64,000 nucleotides of DNA, from NCBI RefSeq assembly GCF_056712565.1, contig NZ_CM160072.1. One strand, 5' to 3'. Below are positions 8,427 through 18,075 of the stretch, piece by piece (position 1 is the first letter of the stretch; the number at the start of each line of letters is the position of its first letter). The position numbers were made by a program, and so were the translations under genes. The notes beneath the pieces were generated by a model. It did not search any database and was not told where the DNA came from. It saw only the letters and a list, made by a program, of their open reading frames with translations.

Positions 8427-9137
8427 TTACTCATTAATCAATTTTTTGATATGTTCTCTAATCTCTAACAACCTCATACCATAAGAGATGAATTTATAAT
8501 CATCTGTATCACGCGCAGGCAAATTATTAATTAAACAAATAAAAAAACCCAAATCTCGTTCAACACCACGATTATATCTAATACCAGCCATAATATACTG
8601 CTCATTCGTCATATACAGTGTTGCCGAAGAGGGATAATCAAAAAGAACAAGATCTCTTAAATAAGTAGCAGCAATTTGAAAGGTAAAATCATCCTCCATT
8701 AGGCATGTCGCTAACTCTAACTGATTTCTGGTAGTTAATTCTGAAGGGTCTAGACCTAGAGTAATCGCTGCGGTTCGTATTTGTATACCCATTGAGCCAA
8801 ATGATGTTTTATTTTCAGGCATATCTAACAATCCGATCATTCTTTTTGTTTCATATATCTGAAACTTATAATTTTCAGGCATACCTCCTGACTCAATCCA
8901 GGCCACGCCGCCCAGTAACTCTGGACGAATTCCAGCGGCGTATGCATGTTTAATTATTTTGTCTCTATTATATTGTACATATGCATCTTTATAAGCATTT
9001 AAATAATATACTCCTGAACGGCGACGCGAATCATTTTTTCCTAACTTCCAGAGTAAAACGTCCATTTCATCCCATTTACGGAACTTCGCTTGTGGAATTG
9101 TACAATATCTATTTTTTATAGTGAGATCGCTTTTCAT
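8427..9137 (-). CDS. hypothetical protein with lytic transglycosylase/lysozyme-like (SLT/GH23-type) motifs; candidate Hcp-associated T6SS effector
   Basis: ORF 8427-9164; start placed at ATG 9135-9137 (MKSDLTIKNRY...), 2 bp after hcp stop, with AAGGA RBS inside hcp 3' end. Motifs GGVAWIESGG, FGSMGIQ and AGIRYNRG in SLT-like order; no N-terminal signal peptide. Confidence 0.55.
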   Translation of the reverse strand: MKSDLTIKNRYCTIPQAKFRKWDEMDVLLWKLGKNDSRRRSGVYYLNAYKDAYVQYNRDKIIKHAYAAGIRPELLGGVAWIESGGMPENYKFQIYETKRMIGLLDMPENKTSFGSMGIQIRTAAITLGLDPSELTTRNQLELATCLMEDDFTFQIAATYLRDLVLFDYPSSATLYMTNEQYIMAGIRYNRGVERDLGFFICLINNLPARDTDDYKFISYGMRLLEIREHIKKLINE

Positions 9138-9139
9138 AT

Positions 9140-9619
9140 TTAAAAAATCCTTTCTTCCCAACAACTATATGATTCCGTACTCGCGATATGGTGCTTCCAT
9201 GTTATATTTTTATAATTAAGAACAATGACATCTTCCGGCTGATTACCCGCATGTGTAATTGAGTGTGGATAACATGTCAGAATATTCGATAAATGTGCTC
9301 CTTGCAATTCAATTGTGTAAAACCTTTCAATACAACCGCCAGAATTAATTCTATAAAAATTAAATACAGCTGATAACTCTTCATTTTCAGAAAGAGCGGC
9401 ATTTAATAAAGGGGAGGATTTATCTATTGGCTTGTAAAATTTTATGGGGTGATGCACTACATTATACTCTCGACTTAAAGAATGGTCGAACTGTAAAACA
9501 AAAATTTCATCCACATGATTTATTTGATATTTATTACCAATAGATGCATACGAACCACAACCCTCAGAGATCAAACCTTGTATTTTCCCTTTAATTGATA
9601 AGTATATCATATTTGACAT
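9140..9619 (-). CDS. hcp: Hcp family type VI secretion system tube protein (orphan hcp)
   Basis: 159-aa ORF MSNMIYLSIKGKIQG...; typical Hcp length and conserved blocks (N-terminal YL.IKG, central FYKPIDKSSPLL, C-terminal ITWKH) recognised from memory of Hcp1-family proteins. Confidence 0.75.
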   Translation of the reverse strand: MSNMIYLSIKGKIQGLISEGCGSYASIGNKYQINHVDEIFVLQFDHSLSREYNVVHHPIKFYKPIDKSSPLLNAALSENEELSAVFNFYRINSGGCIERFYTIELQGAHLSNILTCYPHSITHAGNQPEDVIVLNYKNITWKHHIASTESYSCWEERIF

Positions 9620-10480: not shown

Positions 10481-10795
10481 ATGATTACAGTAATCGCAGA
10501 AATCCGTACTCGTCCTGGTCAACATCACCGTCAGGCAGTGTTGGATCAGTTTGCTAAAATCGTTCCAACCGTACTGAAAGAAGAAGGTTGCCACGGCTAT
10601 GCGCCAATGGTGGATTGCGCTGCTGGCGTGAGTTTCCAGTCTATGGCACCGGATTCTATCGTAATGATTGAGCAGTGGGAAAGCATCGCGCATCTTGAAG
10701 CGCATCTGCAAACCCCGCACATGAAAGCATATAGCGAAGCCGTAAAAGGTGACGTGCTGGAGATGAATATTCGTATCCTGCAGCCGGGGCTTTGA
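10481..10795 (+). CDS. ygiN: quinol monooxygenase YgiN
   Basis: 104-aa ORF with RBS ggagttaacc before ATG; follows mdaB as in E. coli. Confidence 0.92.
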   Translation: MITVIAEIRTRPGQHHRQAVLDQFAKIVPTVLKEEGCHGYAPMVDCAAGVSFQSMAPDSIVMIEQWESIAHLEAHLQTPHMKAYSEAVKGDVLEMNIRILQPGL

Positions 10796-10839
10796 CATTT
10801 CTAAAAAGAGGCCGGTGCTGCTACCGGTCTCAGCCCAGA

Positions 10840-11727
10840 TTAGCCATTCTTTCTTCCCGTTTTCAGTCCTCGATGGAAATCGTTAATTCGCTTAATGGTT
10901 TTAACCGCACGCTGCGGCACTGCGGAAGCTACCGACCAGACAATCATTTCCAGACACAACAATACCGTACCATGTAGCGGCGTTTTCCCTTTTTCATCCC
11001 CGCGCGGAACATGAATCACGATACTGGCGTCTTTGCTAAAACGTGAATCCAGCGCGTTTGTCAGCAAAATAACAGGGATCCCCAGCCGCCTCGCCTCACG
11101 AAGCGTTGTCAGCCCTTCCCGGTGCGCAGATTTTTGCGCCATCATGATCAGAACATCGCCACGTTGAAGCGCGATCAGTTGCTCGGCAAGGCCAATACCC
11201 GTACGGTTTAGTGCCGTGGCAGGCAAACCTATGCGGTTGAATAGTCGTGCGGTATAGTCCGCCAGAATACCCGAAGCGCCAATGCCAAAAATTGCGACTT
11301 GCCGTGCCTGCACCAACAACGCTACAGCTTGCGCAAGCGCGTGGCGGTTTTCAGGCTCTGACAGGACATTACAGGTATACAAATGCCCTTCAAGAACAAA
11401 GTCGATTGCGGTGTTAACATCGCTCGTCAAGTTACTCACCGTCGTAGACATCTTTTCGCTGGAACTAAGGGCTGGACCAAGCCACTGTTCCAGAGTGCGT
11501 TTCAGATCACGCAGCCCGGCAAACCCCAGGGCCTGTATAGCCCTGATAACTGTGGCATCGGAAGTGTTCAACGTGGCCGCAATTTCCATCGCCGTTTGCT
11601 CGAGTACCACTTCACGATGCTCATTAATGTAGCTGGCGACAGCTCTTAACCCAGGCGTTAACTGACTCGCGCGAGTGCGAAAACGCTCACCAAAAATATC
11701 AACCCGCGCTTTATCTTTCTGGATCAT
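10840..11727 (-). CDS. RpiR/MurR-family transcriptional regulator (N-terminal HTH, C-terminal SIS domain); last gene of Fit-like uptake operon
   Basis: 295-aa ORF; HTH region then SIS-like segment VAIFGIGASG...; start overlaps stop of upstream binding-protein gene. Confidence 0.8.
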   Translation of the reverse strand: MIQKDKARVDIFGERFRTRASQLTPGLRAVASYINEHREVVLEQTAMEIAATLNTSDATVIRAIQALGFAGLRDLKRTLEQWLGPALSSSEKMSTTVSNLTSDVNTAIDFVLEGHLYTCNVLSEPENRHALAQAVALLVQARQVAIFGIGASGILADYTARLFNRIGLPATALNRTGIGLAEQLIALQRGDVLIMMAQKSAHREGLTTLREARRLGIPVILLTNALDSRFSKDASIVIHVPRGDEKGKTPLHGTVLLCLEMIVWSVASAVPQRAVKTIKRINDFHRGLKTGRKNG

Positions 11728-12671
11728 TTAGCCTCCGGTAGAGGTCGCCCTGCAATTTGTGATTGTATCTGCGCAGCCATCAGCCCCAGAGATGCAAAGG
11801 AGTTAGAAATTGCCTCTTCACGAGAAATCAGCACATAACGCCCGGAACGACAGGCAGTCAGAAACTGACACCATCCCGGCATGACTTTTTCCATTGCTGC
11901 CAGCTCATCCTGAGGTTTACCACCGGTGTCACCGCGCCAGGTTGCAAAAACAAAATCGGCATCCAGTTCAGGTAAACGCTCCGCGCTCACATCCATTCGC
12001 CCACCTTCAGGAATGCTCTCAATCAGCGGCGGAAAACGAAAACCAGCATCGCGTAATACCCGCCCCAGCGAATGATAGCTATGCATCACATTAATTTTTC
12101 CCTGGTTTGCCTGAATCACCGATACCGTTATTTTTTGGCTGTCCAGCGTCGCCTTCAGCGCATTGATTTGTGCCTGATAGCGGCGTTCAAGTATCGCCAG
12201 CTGCGACTGCGTTCCTGTAAGTTCTGCCAGCTTGCGATAGATTTCTGGCGCACCCCCTTTGAGATGATCAATGCTCACCGTGGGCGCAATTTTTTCAAGT
12301 TGTTCAATGGGCGTATTACGGGTCGGTTCTGTGATGATCAGGTCAGGCTTTGCCGCCACAATCGCTTCAATATCAATATCAGCGGTACCAATAAAGGCGA
12401 TCGATGAATTATCAAAGTCGACACCTGTCAATAACGCGCCAGATCGAATGAAATGGCTACCGTCAGGCCGAGTTCGCCCGTGGCTGGCGACAGGAGGTAC
12501 ACCGAGCTCAATCAGAGGAATAGTGATATCAAGATCGTGTAAAGAGACAATTCTCTTTGGATGAGCAGGAACAGTGACTTTGCGCCCTAAATCATCAGTA
12601 AATACCTGAACAGGTTCTGTTGCACGGGAAAAAAATGACAACAGTATCAGCAGAGAAAAAAATAAACGCAT
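11724..12671 (-). CDS. periplasmic substrate-binding protein of iron-siderophore/B12-type ABC transporter (Fit-like)
   Basis: ORF 11724-12734; start placed at MRLFFSLLILLSFFSRA (signal peptide); cluster-9 type SBP. Confidence 0.8.
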   Translation of the reverse strand: MRLFFSLLILLSFFSRATEPVQVFTDDLGRKVTVPAHPKRIVSLHDLDITIPLIELGVPPVASHGRTRPDGSHFIRSGALLTGVDFDNSSIAFIGTADIDIEAIVAAKPDLIITEPTRNTPIEQLEKIAPTVSIDHLKGGAPEIYRKLAELTGTQSQLAILERRYQAQINALKATLDSQKITVSVIQANQGKINVMHSYHSLGRVLRDAGFRFPPLIESIPEGGRMDVSAERLPELDADFVFATWRGDTGGKPQDELAAMEKVMPGWCQFLTACRSGRYVLISREEAISNSFASLGLMAAQIQSQIAGRPLPEAK

Positions 12672-12681
12672 ATAACTCCCG

Positions 12682-13731
12682 TTAAAAACTGTTCCTGCGC
12701 TGCCAGAGCAGTAGCAAAAAAAATGGTCCACCAATCAGTGAGATAATGATTCCGGCAGGCAGTTGCAAAGGCAAAAAAGCCAAACGACCAATGCTATCCG
12801 CCAGAATAACTAACAACGCCCCCGATACCGCGCTCCCCAGCAGTAATGTCGTCTGCCCGCCACGTAGAATAAAACGTGATATATGGGGTGCTATCAATCC
12901 GACAAAACCGATGTTACCAACACACGAAACGCAGACGGCTGTCAGGATTATGGGTGCGGCGACACGTAACAACGCCAGACGAGAACTATTCACCCCTAAC
13001 CCGGTTGCAACCTGATGACCAAGCAGAGCGATATCCGCAGTCCTGGCGGTGAACAGCAATAAAAGAGCGGCTGGCAACATCCAACAGGCTGAAATACCGA
13101 CTAACATCCAGTTAGCTGCATGCAGGCTTCCCGATAACCACATCAATGCAGTTTGTACATCTCGAACATCTGCAGTGGTCATAAATACACCGATACCGGC
13201 GGCGAAAAACCAGGAAACACCAATACCAATCAGAACAAATCGCGGGCGGGAAATATCGCGCGCACAAAAAATCACGATTAAAGCCACCAACAGACCACCA
13301 GCAAGACCAGCCACTGGACGCCAGAACATTCCCAGCATTGGAAACTGGAAAATCAGCCACAGCACCGCCACGCTACATCCTTCTTTGACGCCGATTAAAC
13401 CAGGATCGGCAAGGCCGTTACGCGCAATGGATTGCATCGCGGCCCCCGCCATACCTAACATGGCCCCGCATAGCAATGCCATGATGACTCTCGGCAAGCG
13501 AATATCCTGCACAATATAACGTGCGTCTGTGCTTACGTTTTCTGGAGCAAACAACGCTCGTCCTACTTCCGATGCCGGAACAGAGAAAGAACCCTGCATC
13601 AGACCGAATATCAGTATTCCAACCGCAAGCAGGAACAGCCCACCAAGCAACAGCAGATTTTTAGGGCGCACCAGTGTCGAAAACTTACCAACACGTAGTG
13701 GGCGTAGCCCGACGTTCATTATCCGACTCAT
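12682..13731 (-). CDS. FecCD-family ABC transporter permease (Fit-like)
   Basis: 349-aa polytopic membrane ORF; 4-bp overlap with upstream permease gene. Confidence 0.82.
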   Translation of the reverse strand: MSRIMNVGLRPLRVGKFSTLVRPKNLLLLGGLFLLAVGILIFGLMQGSFSVPASEVGRALFAPENVSTDARYIVQDIRLPRVIMALLCGAMLGMAGAAMQSIARNGLADPGLIGVKEGCSVAVLWLIFQFPMLGMFWRPVAGLAGGLLVALIVIFCARDISRPRFVLIGIGVSWFFAAGIGVFMTTADVRDVQTALMWLSGSLHAANWMLVGISACWMLPAALLLLFTARTADIALLGHQVATGLGVNSSRLALLRVAAPIILTAVCVSCVGNIGFVGLIAPHISRFILRGGQTTLLLGSAVSGALLVILADSIGRLAFLPLQLPAGIIISLIGGPFFLLLLWQRRNSF

Positions 13732-14711
13732 TTGAACATCCTCGTCGCCATAATGACAAAAACAGGCGCACCAACTAACGCCGTCATGACACCGGTCGCT
13801 AACTCATGGGGCGTGAAAAGCGTCCGGGCAATAATATCTGCCAGTAATAACAAAAGCGCGCCGACACAAGCTGAAAGAGGGAGCAGAACGCGCAGATCCG
13901 CTGATACCAGACGCCGGACAATCTGCGGTACTAGCAGGCCGACAAAACCAATGGGGCCAGCAATCGATACGGCTGCGCCACAGAGCAACGCGATCGCAAG
14001 CAGGGTGAATGTTCGCGTGCGGAGTACAGAGACGCCCAGCCCCTGCGCCATGCGATCGCCCAGTGCCAACATGTTAAGGGAGGGTGCAAGGTAAAGGGCT
14101 AACACAAATCCCCCCAGAGAAAACCAGGCGGACGTACCCAGCGTCGCCCAATCCTGCCCCGCTAAATCACCTGCTAGCCATGTCCGCATCGCCAGCAGTG
14201 TTTGTTCGTCAAGAATCAGGATTGCAGCCGTTATTGAGGACACGAACGCCGATAGCGCCACGCCGCATAAAGTAACTTTCATTGGCGTTAACCCTGAACG
14301 CCCTGCGGAGGAAAGCAGCAATATCAACAGGAACAATAACGCGCCCCCCGTAGATGCCAGCAGTGGGCGTCCAACCGGAAAGGCCAGTCCAAGCGCACTA
14401 GCGGCAACGACAGCAAGAGCGGCTCCGGCATTTAAGCCTAAAATATGTGGCTCCCCCAATGGGTTACGAATGACAGCCTGCAACAAAGCACCAGCAACAC
14501 CAAGAGAAGCACCGGTAAGCAATGCTGCCGCTAAACGCGGCAAACGGAGTCTTACAATTACGTTGTGATCGAAGTTTTGCGGATCAAAATGAAGAAATGC
14601 CTGCAACACCGTTTGTGGTGCAATAAATCGGGCACCAATCCCTGGATATACCACGCATCCCACCAGCAGTAAGGCGAGGAAAATTACAGTAACCAGCCCT
14701 GTGCGCATCAT
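13728..14711 (-). CDS. FecCD-family ABC transporter permease (Fit-like)
   Basis: 327-aa polytopic membrane ORF; 4-bp overlap with ATPase gene. Confidence 0.82.
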   Translation of the reverse strand: MMRTGLVTVIFLALLLVGCVVYPGIGARFIAPQTVLQAFLHFDPQNFDHNVIVRLRLPRLAAALLTGASLGVAGALLQAVIRNPLGEPHILGLNAGAALAVVAASALGLAFPVGRPLLASTGGALLFLLILLLSSAGRSGLTPMKVTLCGVALSAFVSSITAAILILDEQTLLAMRTWLAGDLAGQDWATLGTSAWFSLGGFVLALYLAPSLNMLALGDRMAQGLGVSVLRTRTFTLLAIALLCGAAVSIAGPIGFVGLLVPQIVRRLVSADLRVLLPLSACVGALLLLLADIIARTLFTPHELATGVMTALVGAPVFVIMATRMFK

Positions 14712-15517
14712 ACTTTTTCTACACCACGAAACGGCATGAAGTACGGCTTTCCCGTCAGAGGATTTATTGATGCGTGAACATCAACGTCAAAGACCGCTTT
14801 TACCAGCTCAGGCGTGCAATGCTCCCCCTCATTCAACACACGCACCACTTTCCCCTGGCGTAAAAATATCAACGTATCACCATAATTGACGGCAAAATTC
14901 AGATCATGCAACACCACGACGACTGTACGCCCGTGATGACGCGTTAAATCATGTAATAACTCAAGAATTTCAACCTGATAACGTAAATCAAGCCAGGTTG
15001 TGGGTTCATCCAGCAGGATATAAGGCGTCTTTTGCGCCAACACCATCGCAATCCAGCAACGCTGGCGCTGCCCACCAGAGAGTTTTTCAACAGGTAAATG
15101 TGCAAACTCCTGCGTACCCGTTAATTTCAGGGCCTCTTCCACCGCCAGCTCATCGGCGTCGCTCCATTGACGTATGAAATTTTGCCAGGGAAAACGCCCA
15201 CGCGATACCAGTTCATAAACGGTTAAGCCCTCCGGCAATAATGGCGACTGCGGCAAGATCCCAAGTCTACGGGATAACGCTTTCGTTGGTTGCTCGTGAA
15301 TCGCTTTGCCATCAAGCAATATCGAACCGCCCATGGGTTGCAAGATACGTGCAATGGTGCTGAGCAACGTCGACTTTCCACAGCCGTTTGCCCCAACCAG
15401 AACGGTCATTTTTTCTGTGGGAACGGAGAAAGAAACACCATCAACAATGATCTTCTTGTGATACCCGGCAGAAACATTGTCGAGGATCAGCCCCTGCCCT
15501 TTTGCGTTATGTGCCAC
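14708..15517 (-). CDS. ABC transporter ATP-binding protein (Fit-like)
   Basis: 269-aa ORF with Walker A GANGCGKST, signature LSGGQRQR and Walker B ILLDEP. Confidence 0.88.
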   Translation of the reverse strand: MAHNAKGQGLILDNVSAGYHKKIIVDGVSFSVPTEKMTVLVGANGCGKSTLLSTIARILQPMGGSILLDGKAIHEQPTKALSRRLGILPQSPLLPEGLTVYELVSRGRFPWQNFIRQWSDADELAVEEALKLTGTQEFAHLPVEKLSGGQRQRCWIAMVLAQKTPYILLDEPTTWLDLRYQVEILELLHDLTRHHGRTVVVVLHDLNFAVNYGDTLIFLRQGKVVRVLNEGEHCTPELVKAVFDVDVHASINPLTGKPYFMPFRGVEKV

Positions 15518-15771
15518 GTGTACGCCAACTTAATCAAAGACAAACAAAAATAAAACTCATTCTCCTTTGAGAGTTTGACGCCACAAAATGTAGTAGTCAA
15601 GCAGTTAAAAGCCACACAAAAACAAGGTAAATAACAGGTAAACTATTTTTATACATAAAAATAAAAACATTAAATATCAATAAATTAAAAGCAATCAAAT
15701 TGTATAAACTTTTCATAAAAACACATGTAGCAATTTTTTGTTATTTCTCATTTACTACTACATTACTGCGT

Positions 15772-15790
15772 GATTGAATGATTCTCAATT
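15772..15790. promoter_or_regulatory. weak Fur-box-like sequence in divergent promoter region between ABC operon and receptor gene
   Basis: gattgaatgattctcaatt partially resembles the GATAATGATAATCATTATC consensus inside a 370-bp AT-rich intergenic region. Confidence 0.25.
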
Positions 15791-15890
15791 ACATATCCGA
15801 TGGCGAAATAACAAACGGATAGTGCTTAGTGAGCAATAAGAAACAATTTTCACTCGCGACAATCCGCGAGTTTTTGGGATAACAGACTAA

Positions 15891-18032
15891 ATGGCTATGT
15901 TCACACCTTCATTCTCAGGACTCAAAGGTCGGGCGCTCTTTTCACTGCTTTTTGCGGCACCGATGATTCATGCAACAGACTCTGTAACGACCAAAGATGG
16001 CGAAACAATCACTGTTACAGCAGATGCAAATACCGCAACTGAGGCAACCGATGGTTATCAACCTCTGAGCACCTCCACGGCGACATTAACCGATATGCCG
16101 ATGCTGGATATCCCGCAGGTGGTCAATACGGTTAGCGATCAGGTTCTGGAAAACCAGAATGCGACAACGCTGGATGAGGCGCTTTATAACGTCAGTAACG
16201 TGGTACAGACCAATACATTAGGCGGGACTCAGGATGCTTTTGTACGCCGTGGGTTTGGCGCAAACCGGGATGGCTCCATCATGACCAACGGTCTGCGAAC
16301 CGTACTTCCTCGTAGTTTCAACGCCGCAACAGAGCGTGTGGAAGTGCTAAAAGGCCCGGCCTCCACGCTGTATGGCATTCTCGATCCTGGCGGACTGATT
16401 AACGTCGTGACCAAGCGCCCGGAAAAAACATTCCATGGTTCGGTTTCAGCCACCTCCTCCAGTTTTGGTGGCGGCACTGGGCAACTTGATATCACAGGTC
16501 CCATTGAAGGCACTCAGCTGGCGTATCGCCTTACCGGGGAAGTGCAGGATGAAGATTACTGGCGAAACTTCGGTAAAGAGCGCAGTACATTTATTGCCCC
16601 GTCACTCACCTGGTTTGGTGATAATGCAACAGTAACCATGCTCTATTCCCATCGGGACTATAAAACTCCATTCGATCGTGGAACGATTTTCGACCTTACG
16701 ACGAAACAGCCCGTAAACGTTGATCGAAAAATACGTTTTGACGAACCGTTTAATATTACAGATGGTCAGTCCGATCTGGCGCAACTCAACGCAGAATATC
16801 ATCTCAATAGCCAGTGGACAGCGCGCTTTGATTACAGCTACAGCCAGGATAAATACAGCGATAATCAGGCGCGTGTTACCGCGTATGATGCAACGACAGG
16901 AACACTGACACGGCGTGTTGATGCAACTCAGGGATCTACCCAGCGTATGCATGCTACTCGTGCGGATCTGCAAGGGAATGTTGATATTGCCGGATTCTAT
17001 AATGAGATTCTGGGTGGGGTGTCATATGAATATTATGATCTTCTGCGTACAGATATGATTCGCTGTAAAAAAGCTAAAGATTTCAATATATACAACCCTG
17101 TTTATGGTAATACCAGCAAATGTACAACGGTTTCGGCGTCGGACAGCGATCAGACGATCAAACAGGAGAACTACTCAGCTTATGCACAGGACGCGCTCTA
17201 TCTGACCGATAACTGGATTGCCGTCGCCGGGATCCGCTATCAGTATTACACGCAATATGCGGGTAAAGGCCGTCCTTTTAATGTCAATACTGACAGCCGC
17301 GATGAACAATGGACGCCCAAACTGGGGTTAGTCTACAAACTGACGCCATCGGTATCCTTATTTGCCAATTATTCGCAAACATTTATGCCGCAGTCGTCAA
17401 TTGCCAGCTACATTGGCGATCTTCCACCAGAATCATCTAATGCTTACGAAGTCGGGGCAAAATTCGAGCTATTCGATGGTATCACCGCAGATATTGCGCT
17501 GTTTGATATCCATAAACGTAATGTGTTGTATACCGAAAGTATTGGTGATGAAACCATCGCCAAAACGGCAGGCCGCGTTCGTTCAAGAGGGGTAGAAGTC
17601 GACCTTGCGGGAGCATTAACTGAAAACATTAATATCATTGCCAGCTACGGCTATACCGATGCAAAGGTTCTGGAAGATCCTGATTATGCAGGGAAACCAT
17701 TGCCGAATGTTCCTCGTCATACCGGTTCGCTATTCCTGACCTATGATATTCATAACATGCCAGGCAATAACACACTGACGTTTGGCGGTGGCGGACATGG
17801 TGTAAGCCGTCGTTCGGCAACCAATGGGGCTGACTATTATCTGCCTGGCTATTTCGTTGCCGATGCCTTCGCCGCATACAAAATGAAATTGCAGTATCCG
17901 GTCACTCTGCAATTAAACGTCAAAAACCTGTTTGATAAAACGTATTACACCTCTTCCATCGCCACAAATAATCTGGGCAACCAGATTGGCGATCCGCGTG
18001 AAGTGCAATTCACGGTGAAAATGGAATTTTGA
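15891..18032 (+). CDS. TonB-dependent outer-membrane receptor (Fit-like iron-compound receptor)
   Basis: 713-aa ORF; signal peptide, TonB-box-like ETITVTA, plug then beta-barrel, C-terminal aromatic residue (…VKMEF). Confidence 0.88.
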   Translation: MAMFTPSFSGLKGRALFSLLFAAPMIHATDSVTTKDGETITVTADANTATEATDGYQPLSTSTATLTDMPMLDIPQVVNTVSDQVLENQNATTLDEALYNVSNVVQTNTLGGTQDAFVRRGFGANRDGSIMTNGLRTVLPRSFNAATERVEVLKGPASTLYGILDPGGLINVVTKRPEKTFHGSVSATSSSFGGGTGQLDITGPIEGTQLAYRLTGEVQDEDYWRNFGKERSTFIAPSLTWFGDNATVTMLYSHRDYKTPFDRGTIFDLTTKQPVNVDRKIRFDEPFNITDGQSDLAQLNAEYHLNSQWTARFDYSYSQDKYSDNQARVTAYDATTGTLTRRVDATQGSTQRMHATRADLQGNVDIAGFYNEILGGVSYEYYDLLRTDMIRCKKAKDFNIYNPVYGNTSKCTTVSASDSDQTIKQENYSAYAQDALYLTDNWIAVAGIRYQYYTQYAGKGRPFNVNTDSRDEQWTPKLGLVYKLTPSVSLFANYSQTFMPQSSIASYIGDLPPESSNAYEVGAKFELFDGITADIALFDIHKRNVLYTESIGDETIAKTAGRVRSRGVEVDLAGALTENINIIASYGYTDAKVLEDPDYAGKPLPNVPRHTGSLFLTYDIHNMPGNNTLTFGGGGHGVSRRSATNGADYYLPGYFVADAFAAYKMKLQYPVTLQLNVKNLFDKTYYTSSIATNNLGNQIGDPREVQFTVKMEF

Positions 18033-18039
18033 TCAAAAA

Positions 18040-18075
18040 AGCCCGGTATACACTTGTATACCGGGCTATGTTTTA
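18040..18075. terminator. bidirectional hairpin terminator between receptor gene and parE
   Basis: agcccggtataca / tgtataccgggct inverted repeat flanked by A-run and T-run. Confidence 0.6.

Follow-up and report, generated by a model that had tools for sequence, protein, structure and literature searches.

Gene content of the locus

We analyzed a 64,000-nucleotide stretch of Escherichia coli DNA (contig NZ_CM160072.1 of RefSeq assembly GCF_056712565.1, hereafter the window), which is 100% identical to E. coli ATCC 11775, and studied the six-gene cluster at positions 10840-18032, between ygiN and parE. This cluster is the published and already known E. coli fit locus, encoding a TonB-dependent receptor, an ATP-binding cassette (ABC) importer, and the regulator FitR. 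RefSeq annotates the same six genes, with ygiN and parE on either side. An earlier reading made from the letters alone (the sequence-only reading) had described a receptor gene divergent from an operon of ATPase, permease, permease, binding protein, and regulator genes, and the open reading frames (ORFs) are found where it placed them. The block contains the following features.

15891-18032, plus strand: fitA, TonB-dependent outer-membrane receptor, 713 amino acids (ORF list, NCBIfam TIGR01783)
14708-15517, minus strand: fitB, ABC ATPase, 269 amino acids, GTG start (ORF, NCBIfam; gene name after PMC2593036)
13728-14711, minus strand: fitC, FecCD-family permease, 327 amino acids (ORF, NCBIfam)
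12682-13719 (RefSeq start), minus strand: fitD, FecCD-family permease; the longest ORF begins at 13731, overlapping the stop of fitC
11724-12671 (RefSeq start, MRLFFSLL) or from 12734, minus strand: fitE, periplasmic siderophore-type binding protein, Peripla_BP_2 class
10840-11727, minus strand: fitR, HTH_6 plus SIS repressor of the RpiR/MurR family, 295 amino acids
10812-10827, minus strand: terminator-like hairpin followed by a T-run, just past the fitR stop
18040-18067, no strand assigned: bidirectional terminator hairpin between the convergent fitA and parE

The hairpin at 10812-10827 is likely the end of the fitBCDER transcript. ATGA stop/start overlaps join fitB to fitC, fitC to fitD (with the longest fitD ORF), and fitE to fitR, while the fitD/fitE junction is a 10-nt gap if the RefSeq start is taken. 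The sequence-only reading had correctly described the operon as coupled. Pfam profiles place HTH_6 (PF01418, E 1.1e-9) at FitR residues 15-81 and SIS (PF01380, E 1.3e-13) at residues 138-247. The RpiR/MurR-type architecture of helix-turn-helix (HTH) and SIS domains, which the sequence-only reading had assigned and which hung on a SIS domain being there on a profile search, is therefore confirmed.

Identity with the published fit system

Ouyang and Isaacson described the fit system in E. coli i484 (Infect Immun 2006; Open Microbiol J 2008, PMC2593036), with fitA encoding the receptor, fitB the ATPase, fitC and fitD the permeases, and fitE the binding protein, together with fitR. The gene order in the window is the order given in PMC2593036. 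Both published fit promoter primers map exactly (forward, 15511-15534; reverse, 15848-15869), the fitR expression primer fitR2 maps to 11705-11727 with the same start codon and one mismatch, and the fitA quantitative PCR primer maps to 16635-16654. FitE matches PDB 3BE5/3BE6 with an E value of 2.2e-195 over residues 19-315, and this PDB entry is named Ec-FitE in PMC10553834. Because the primers map, FitE is the protein of 3BE5/3BE6, and gene order and domains agree with the papers, we identify the cluster with fit, as the sequence-only reading had believed. The two loci are the same, and only the strain differs. According to the literature, the system is repressed by iron and supports iron uptake.

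The regulator had been singled out as unusual. Its HTH plus SIS architecture was read correctly, but it is not new: PMC2593036 already describes FitR as an HTH plus SIS auto-repressor that lowers expression from both promoters 2-5 fold and, by electrophoretic mobility shift assay (EMSA), retards the intergenic fragment. Neither the operator and promoter layout nor the leader RNA and wider family figure in the E. coli fit papers; they are added by the present analysis. Sequence comparison is the source of all this new material, which we present as predictions: the candidate operator pair, which may form a loop, the remodelling of the SIS pocket, a family of regulators linked to receptors, and the leader hairpin.

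Fur control and a candidate FitR operator

In the published work (PMC2593036), derepression was 23-fold in a fur mutant, 2.2-fold in a mutant of fitR, and 52-fold when both genes were mutated; Fur acted independently of FitR, and iron was not required for FitR action. This multiplicative pattern fits two separate sites per promoter. Four elements in the fitA-fitB spacer, none of them assigned to a strand, are candidates for such sites.

15543-15566: Fur-box-like block on the fitB side, matching GATAATGATAATCATTATC at 13 of 19 positions (15546-15564), downstream of the putative fitB -10
15587-15600: candidate half-site O_B, AATGTAGTAGTCAA, with core TGTAGTAGT at 15589-15597 (inverted-repeat search, 10-genus alignment)
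15751-15764: candidate half-site O_A, TTTACTACTACATT, with core ACTACTACA at 15754-15762, inverted relative to O_B
15771-15795: invariant block TGnTTGAATGATTCTCAATTACA on the fitA side, read as an extended -10, TG-n-TTGAAT (15771-15779), that shares bases with a Fur-box-like sequence (12 of 19 positions, 15774-15792)

The 373-bp spacer has a mean identity of just 57% over ten genera, yet it holds two invariant blocks of the TTkACTACTACA type: AAATAAAAATAAAnCTCATTCTC ... ATGTAGTAGTCAA near fitB and CATTTACTACTACA-N6-CrTGnTTGAATGATTCTCAATTACA near fitA. The two Fur-box-like blocks are also invariant, and nowhere else in the spacer is the Fur consensus matched so closely. Their invariance across genera, together with the published Fur dependence, supports them as Fur sites. 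The sequence-only reading had set an RpiR-type regulator in the place of Fur, and on both counts this part of it falls: Fur controls fit (PMC2593036), and the blocks are conserved.

On the fitB strand, O_B reads TTGACTACTACA, which is a putative -35 TTGACT followed by ACTACA, and O_A is likewise a putative fitA-promoter -35 TTTACT followed by ACTACA. Toward each gene the motif is thus TT(G/T)ACT plus ACTACA, and it likely overlaps the -35 of both divergent promoters; on the fitA side, the presumed extended -10 TG-n-TTGAAT lies 17 bp downstream. The distance from O_A to O_B is 167 bp, with a linker of about 157 bp, and the 2008 EMSA probe (15511-15869) spans both half-sites.

We scanned one genome per species with the FitR alignment, which returned 80 loci. 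The inverted pair TGTAGTAGT/ACTACTACA is kept in nearly all of 65 loci and in both gene arrangements described below. In 27 kb of fit intergenic regions there are 110 copies of the 9-mer, against 31 in 1.48 Mb elsewhere; about 20 of these 31 lie in fit spacers missed by the gene-based definition, and the remaining 11 or so are what chance would give.

The half-sites are of the type used by RccR, which, with HexR, is a Pseudomonas central-carbon regulator with the HTH_6 plus SIS architecture of FitR (PDB 8K3B and 8JU9). RccR binds inverted TGTAGT/ACTACA half-sites with linkers of 3 or 16 nt, as established by chromatin immunoprecipitation sequencing, surface plasmon resonance, and footprinting (PMC5489143). 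The FitR profile matches RccR (8K3B), as a distant relative with an E value of about 3e-11, and the DNA-contacting R53 of RccR aligns with the invariant R62 of FitR. In the window, TGTAGT/ACTACA half-sites are present in the same inverted orientation at 15589-15597 and 15754-15762, whereas their linker lies beyond the 3- and 16-nt classes, at about 115-180 bp in FitR loci, and the FitR half-sites are extended to 9 nt.

Three distant loci bear on whether the motif is more than a promoter. In locus L089, of 70% G+C, the regulator is 45% identical to FitR and both half-sites are kept, 125 bp apart, upstream of a co-directional receptor operon, where the distal copy cannot serve as a divergent promoter. 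A sequence related to the fitA-side block, TTGACAATCATTCTCAAT, lies beside this operator. A relative with 42% identity has both half-sites between its own gene and a divergent receptor gene, and one with 35% identity has TGTAGT-N17-ACTACA, of the "long" RccR class, before a receptor gene. The motif is thus kept beside TonB-dependent receptor genes at 59-70% G+C with regulators just 35-45% identical to FitR, and this retention, with the identity to the RccR half-site, argues for a regulator site rather than a promoter alone. The recognition helix TSDATVIR, compared with the operators for covariation, is kept even in relatives without the motif.

Spacings between the halves fall into classes of 125, 166-167, 179, and 188-189 bp, which correspond to 11.9, 15.9, 17.05, and 17.9-18.0 helical turns. 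Halves 12-18 turns apart and in phase suggest DNA looping.

Compact palindromes, GTAGCGATCGCTAC or GTAGCATATACTAC, were also seen upstream of the genes of distant FitR relatives themselves (L092, about 340-390; L093, about 530-590). A GTAG/CTAC core may, as this comparison suggests, be the common half-site of the whole FitR subfamily.

The fitA leader

Two hairpins lie in the fitA leader.

15794-15821, plus strand: stem-loop at the start of the leader, with arms TATCCG (15794-15799) and CGGATA (15816-15821) (RNAalifold)
15852-15875, plus strand: second hairpin, ACTCGCG/CGCGAGT and then a T-run, lying some 15 nt upstream of the fitA start codon

In the RNAalifold analysis of 20 sequences from many genera, compensatory changes were found in all 6 pairs of the first stem, and 92.5% of cells were paired; none of 500 shuffles reached its covariation score, and slid controls were 33-38% paired. 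No Rfam family covers the intergenic region or the leader, all matches being under the gathering score. Hairpins of unrelated sequence occur at the relative position of the second one in 20 genera or species, and it could be an attenuator or stabilizer. In folding energy it does no better than shuffles, with no significant z-score, and we do not regard it as established.

Most genera also have a conserved single-stranded leader motif, GGGCAAUGA, which in E. coli is GUGAGCAAU (15829-15837). The motif complements the RyhB core CAUUGCUCAC, with the RyhB sequence confirmed against Rfam. The energy of the RyhB-leader duplex is no better than that with shuffled leaders (z of -1.5 to +0.4), and possible RyhB control of fitA is only a lead.

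The SIS pocket and a presumed inducing signal

RccR holds the phosphate of KDPG (2-keto-3-deoxy-6-phosphogluconate) by S139, S183, S185, and S188, and changing all four to alanine largely or completely abolishes its response (PMC11014249). FitR does not have this canonical four-serine site. In the profile alignment it keeps one serine, S152 (S139 in RccR), whereas A197, K199, and H202 replace S183, S185, and S188. These three replacements are invariant among the orthologs, and the loop MMAQKSAHREG is unchanged in eleven genera. H148 and R152 of RccR correspond to R161 and R165 of FitR, which are invariant. The S-x-S-G motif is absent also from the nearest approximately 90 cluster representatives, at 28-52% identity to FitR. 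The pocket thus appears conserved but remodelled, which makes a canonical sugar phosphate an unlikely ligand, while an anionic one is plausible.

This bears directly on what the sequence-only reading had drawn from the regulator class, namely, that the substrate or the signal is a phosphorylated or sugar-containing compound. In such a model FitR would sense the compound, fit would respond to carbon status or to a siderophore bearing sugar or phosphate, and FitR would replace Fur-type control. The SIS domain behind this idea is real, S152 and the sugar-contacting basic residues R161 and R165 are kept, and operons of some relatives carry two PstS-like homologues, which hint at a phosphate-bearing substrate in those lineages. 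However, Fur control is documented, three of the four phosphate-binding serines are invariantly replaced in a pocket whose RccR counterpart depends on them for the KDPG response, the whole FitR-near subfamily lacks S-x-S-G, and the E. coli locus has no PstS-like genes. This weakens the phospho-sugar idea to the point that we consider it unlikely.

FitR might instead have no small-molecule inducer and be a constitutive auto-repressor that damps or balances the two promoters, with all signals passing through Fur. Its effects of just 2-5 fold, their independence from iron, the lack of an inducer in the literature, and the place of fitR at the end of the operon that FitR represses, a simple negative feedback, would agree with this. 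Yet orthologs sharing 66-80% overall identity, from Escherichia to Erwinia and Pantoea, show no change in the pocket residues, which is hard to explain without ligand binding, and the characterized relatives RccR, HexR, NanR, and MurR are all ligand-controlled; a FitR without inducer is in our judgment quite improbable. We prefer a ligand-controlled FitR whose ligand differs from the canonical sugar phosphates.

The wider FitR family

Orthologs of FitR with 66-99% identity were found in at least 15 genera of Enterobacterales. The full fit cluster is present in Escherichia, Enterobacter, Kosakonia, Citrobacter, Klebsiella, Raoultella, Kluyvera, and some Erwinia. Serratia, Pantoea, Rahnella, Tatumella, and other Erwinia have a reduced arrangement (the minimal module), with fitR divergent to the gene of another receptor, 35-39% identical to FitA, and with a gene for a 386-amino-acid Peripla_BP_2 protein following that receptor gene; it is found at L058 (6298-10882) and 15 more loci (e.g., L047, L076, and L079), with the same operator motif before the receptor gene. 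No ABC permease genes were found near the minimal module.

Some loci, of Erwinia/Pantoea type and one of 70% G+C, have extra genes between the fitE-type and fitR-type genes, encoding a PepSY_TM membrane protein and two PstS-like (PBP_like_2) proteins (L039, 6926-9992; L043, 6926-9992; L090, 6007-9004; L089, 8010-9946). The FitR relative with 45% identity has the two PstS-like genes too. The best solved match of the PstS-like proteins is a phosphate-binding protein, and at least one of them has no obvious signal peptide as called. PepSY_TM is a family that includes ferric-siderophore reductases. We had considered the 379- and 386-amino-acid accessory proteins as one family, and this was ruled out, one being PepSY_TM and the other Peripla_BP_2.

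Among seven more distant relatives of FitR, four have the motif and a neighboring TonB-dependent receptor gene, two lack both, and one is on a contig too short to tell. By gene neighborhood, the association of FitR-like regulators with TonB-dependent receptors extends well beyond E. coli, and literature searches found no description of a link between RpiR regulators and these receptors.

Transport proteins and substrate class

FitA has a signal peptide and a TonB-box-like ETITVTA near the N terminus, without an N-terminal signalling extension. It belongs to the receptor class of TIGR01783 (373.5 bits; cutoff, 223.5) and scores far below every equivalog cutoff, including those of FhuA (230 versus 803), FoxA (166 versus 1300), FhuE (160 versus 666), and FecA (102 versus 1100). 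Its nearest solved structures are FoxA/CntO, FetA, and FhuA, with E values of about 1e-48 to 1e-44. The best NCBIfam match of FitB is FecE-like, at 282 bits and under the equivalog cutoff, with Walker A and LSGG motifs present, and the other Fit proteins fall into NCBIfam families of the siderophore/heme/B12 type. After its own structures, the solved relatives next closest to FitE are YfiY, FhuD, SirA, and FepB.

A 2018 report (PMC5907654) gave the Fit substrate as unknown and excluded enterobactin, and our literature searches found no later identification; the remark in the sequence-only reading that the substrate remains unidentified stands to this extent. The Fhu and Fox systems (FhuA/FhuCDB, FoxA) resemble fit in having a TonB-dependent receptor, a Peripla_BP_2 protein, FecCD-type permeases, an ATPase, and Fur repression, and FhuA, FoxA, and FhuD are among the best-scoring characterized relatives of the Fit proteins. 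However, the scores are far under the equivalog cutoffs, and the substrate can therefore not be transferred. Fhu has no dedicated regulator, and FoxA of Salmonella and Yersinia is under an AraC-type activator, whereas fit has FitR.

From these relationships, the substrate is most likely a ferric siderophore made by other organisms, of the hydroxamate or carboxylate type. A different metallophore or a cofactor, rather than an iron chelate, would be in keeping with FitA belonging to no equivalog model, with its best solved match being shared by the ferrioxamine receptor FoxA and the pseudopaline receptor CntO, and with the known siderophores being unassigned and enterobactin being excluded (PMC5907654). 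This seems very unlikely, given that Fur and iron regulate fit in E. coli, that Klebsiella fitA is induced by iron limitation, that all the nearest relatives of FitE bind ferric siderophores, and that some related operons include the PepSY_TM gene mentioned above.

Distribution and ancestry at the ygiN/parE site

At least 80% of the fit block is carried by 1,870 of 5,426 complete E. coli genomes (34%). In K-12-type genomes, ygiN and parE are 47 bp apart, with the cluster absent, in agreement with what the sequence-only reading had said of K-12. It had concluded that the block was inserted there, and this polarity is probably reversed. In cryptic Escherichia lineages the whole cluster lies between parE and ygiN-mdaB, and in Enterobacter, Silvania, and Huaxiibacter it adjoins parE, with four extra genes between fitR and ygiN. 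The divergence of each fit gene follows that of the flanking core genes, as the nucleotide identities show.

O157:H7: fit genes, 97-98%; flanks, 97-99%
Cryptic Escherichia clades: fit genes, 92-96%; flanks, about 88-98%
Enterobacter: fit genes, 69-79%; flanks, about 69-85%

The G+C content of the block is 0.45-0.57, similar to that of the flanks, the fitA-fitB spacer alone being lower (0.35), and inspection of the block junctions revealed no repeats, tRNA, or mobility genes. The hairpin at 18040-18067 between fitA and parE is homologous to that of the K-12-type ygiN-parE spacer. Because the cluster has the same position in cryptic Escherichia and Enterobacter, its identity tracks that of the flanks, and island signatures are lacking, we consider it most likely that Escherichia and Enterobacter inherited the cluster at this site from their ancestors and that K-12-type lineages have since lost it.

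Acquisition of fit as a horizontally transferred island, inserted between ygiN and parE in pathogenic lineages, would suit its patchy occurrence in about a third of the complete genomes, its literature association with pathogenic and B2 strains, and the presence of a separate low-G+C Hcp islet 1.2 kb away. Against it stand the flank-like G+C outside the intergenic region, the plain junctions, the shared position in cryptic clades and Enterobacter, and the tracking of fit identity with the flanking core genes down to about 70-79% in Enterobacter, which together make an island unlikely and leave ancestry with later loss as our preferred history.

Several observations concern the surroundings. 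The last ygiN codon (10793-10795 in the window, 3394-3396 in L002) encodes Leu in fit-positive genomes and Ile in K-12-type genomes, and sequences diverge fully directly past the ygiN stop, which would put the left deletion boundary at that stop. A two-gene islet of low G+C (0.34-0.36) at 8427-9619, between ygiZ and mdaB, encodes an Hcp-family type VI secretion protein (159 amino acids) and a hypothetical protein (245 amino acids), and is absent from the K-12-type locus L002 and the O157:H7 locus L083; it is a better candidate for a true insertion than fit. The four extra genes of the Enterobacter type (L006, 10963-16317, from Enterobacter soli, and 10-12 related loci) encode an AraC-type regulator, a 629-amino-acid protein, an oligosaccharide/galactoside permease of the major facilitator superfamily, and a 395-amino-acid protein, with no NCBIfam match for the 629- and 395-amino-acid proteins. 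They resemble a sugar-utilization unit and are absent from Escherichia.

A model of dual repression

Taken together, we explain fit as a siderophore importer under dual repression by Fur and FitR, with a looping operator pair, a noncanonical ligand, and an ancestral cluster, and we give this explanation a probability of about 0.7. The TonB-dependent receptor and a type II ABC importer would take up a ferric siderophore of other organisms, while two independent repressors would hold down both divergent promoters: Fur-Fe2+ at the Fur-box-like sequences that cover the presumed -10 regions or lie just downstream, and FitR at the RccR-type half-sites TGTAGTAGT/ACTACTACA, overlapping both presumed -35 hexamers. 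Oligomeric FitR may bridge the half-sites in a repression loop, and a cytoplasmic ligand on the SIS domain, probably not a canonical sugar phosphate, would relieve repression. FitR over the -35 and Fur over or after the -10 would account for the independent, multiplicative repression reported in 2008.

Several points weigh against this explanation. FitR repression measured in 2008 was small (PMC2593036). In the AT-rich spacer the Fur consensus score is not significant compared with shuffled sequences (P of about 0.24), and a simple sigma-70 scan does not call the proposed fitA and fitB promoters, whose -35 and -10 elements are guesses. Part of the conserved motif could be promoter instead of operator, and each half-site is asymmetric and stands without a partner close by, an unusual arrangement for a dimeric HTH protein. 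For the loop, there are just about four independent spacing classes, and off-phase loci exist at 155 and 181-186 bp. The basic K199, H202, and R203 of the altered loop could still bind phosphate.

RccR, a solved relative, is a tetramer with inverted half-sites separated by a variable linker. It regulates carbon-metabolism genes, whereas the target of FitR is an outer-membrane uptake system. Parallels in function are the AraC-type regulators (PchR, YbtA, AlcR, and FoxR), the extracytoplasmic function sigma/anti-sigma systems (FecIR and FpvIR), and the two-component system PfeRS, in which a locus regulator acts on top of Fur and the receptor is made only with its ligand. By analogy, we propose that FitR follows the same substrate-responsive logic. 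Unlike these regulators, it comes from another protein family, acts by repression instead of activation, and has a ligand that is only presumed, and FitA does not have the N-terminal signalling domain needed for coupling of the FecIR/FpvIR kind.

Tentatively, FitR could be the founder of an unrecognized and widespread RpiR-like one-component class for TonB-dependent uptake in Enterobacterales and high-G+C bacteria. In the FitR clade, split RccR-type half-sites about 12-18 turns apart would serve repression via a loop; the remodelled SIS domain would sense a ligand other than a phosphosugar, possibly the siderophore taken up or one of its products; and the structured fitA leader would add a posttranscriptional layer. 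We would put the odds somewhat against the proposal.

The locus and its unusual regulator are already in the literature, and the comparison leaves that unchanged. Extra-intestinal and adherent-invasive E. coli are recognized with fit as a marker. The analysis offers experimental handles in a precise candidate operator to mutate and a conserved leader RNA. The remodelled pocket gives a structural reason to screen ligands other than sugar phosphates, and the related operons with PepSY_TM and PstS-like proteins may point to the chemistry of the substrate.

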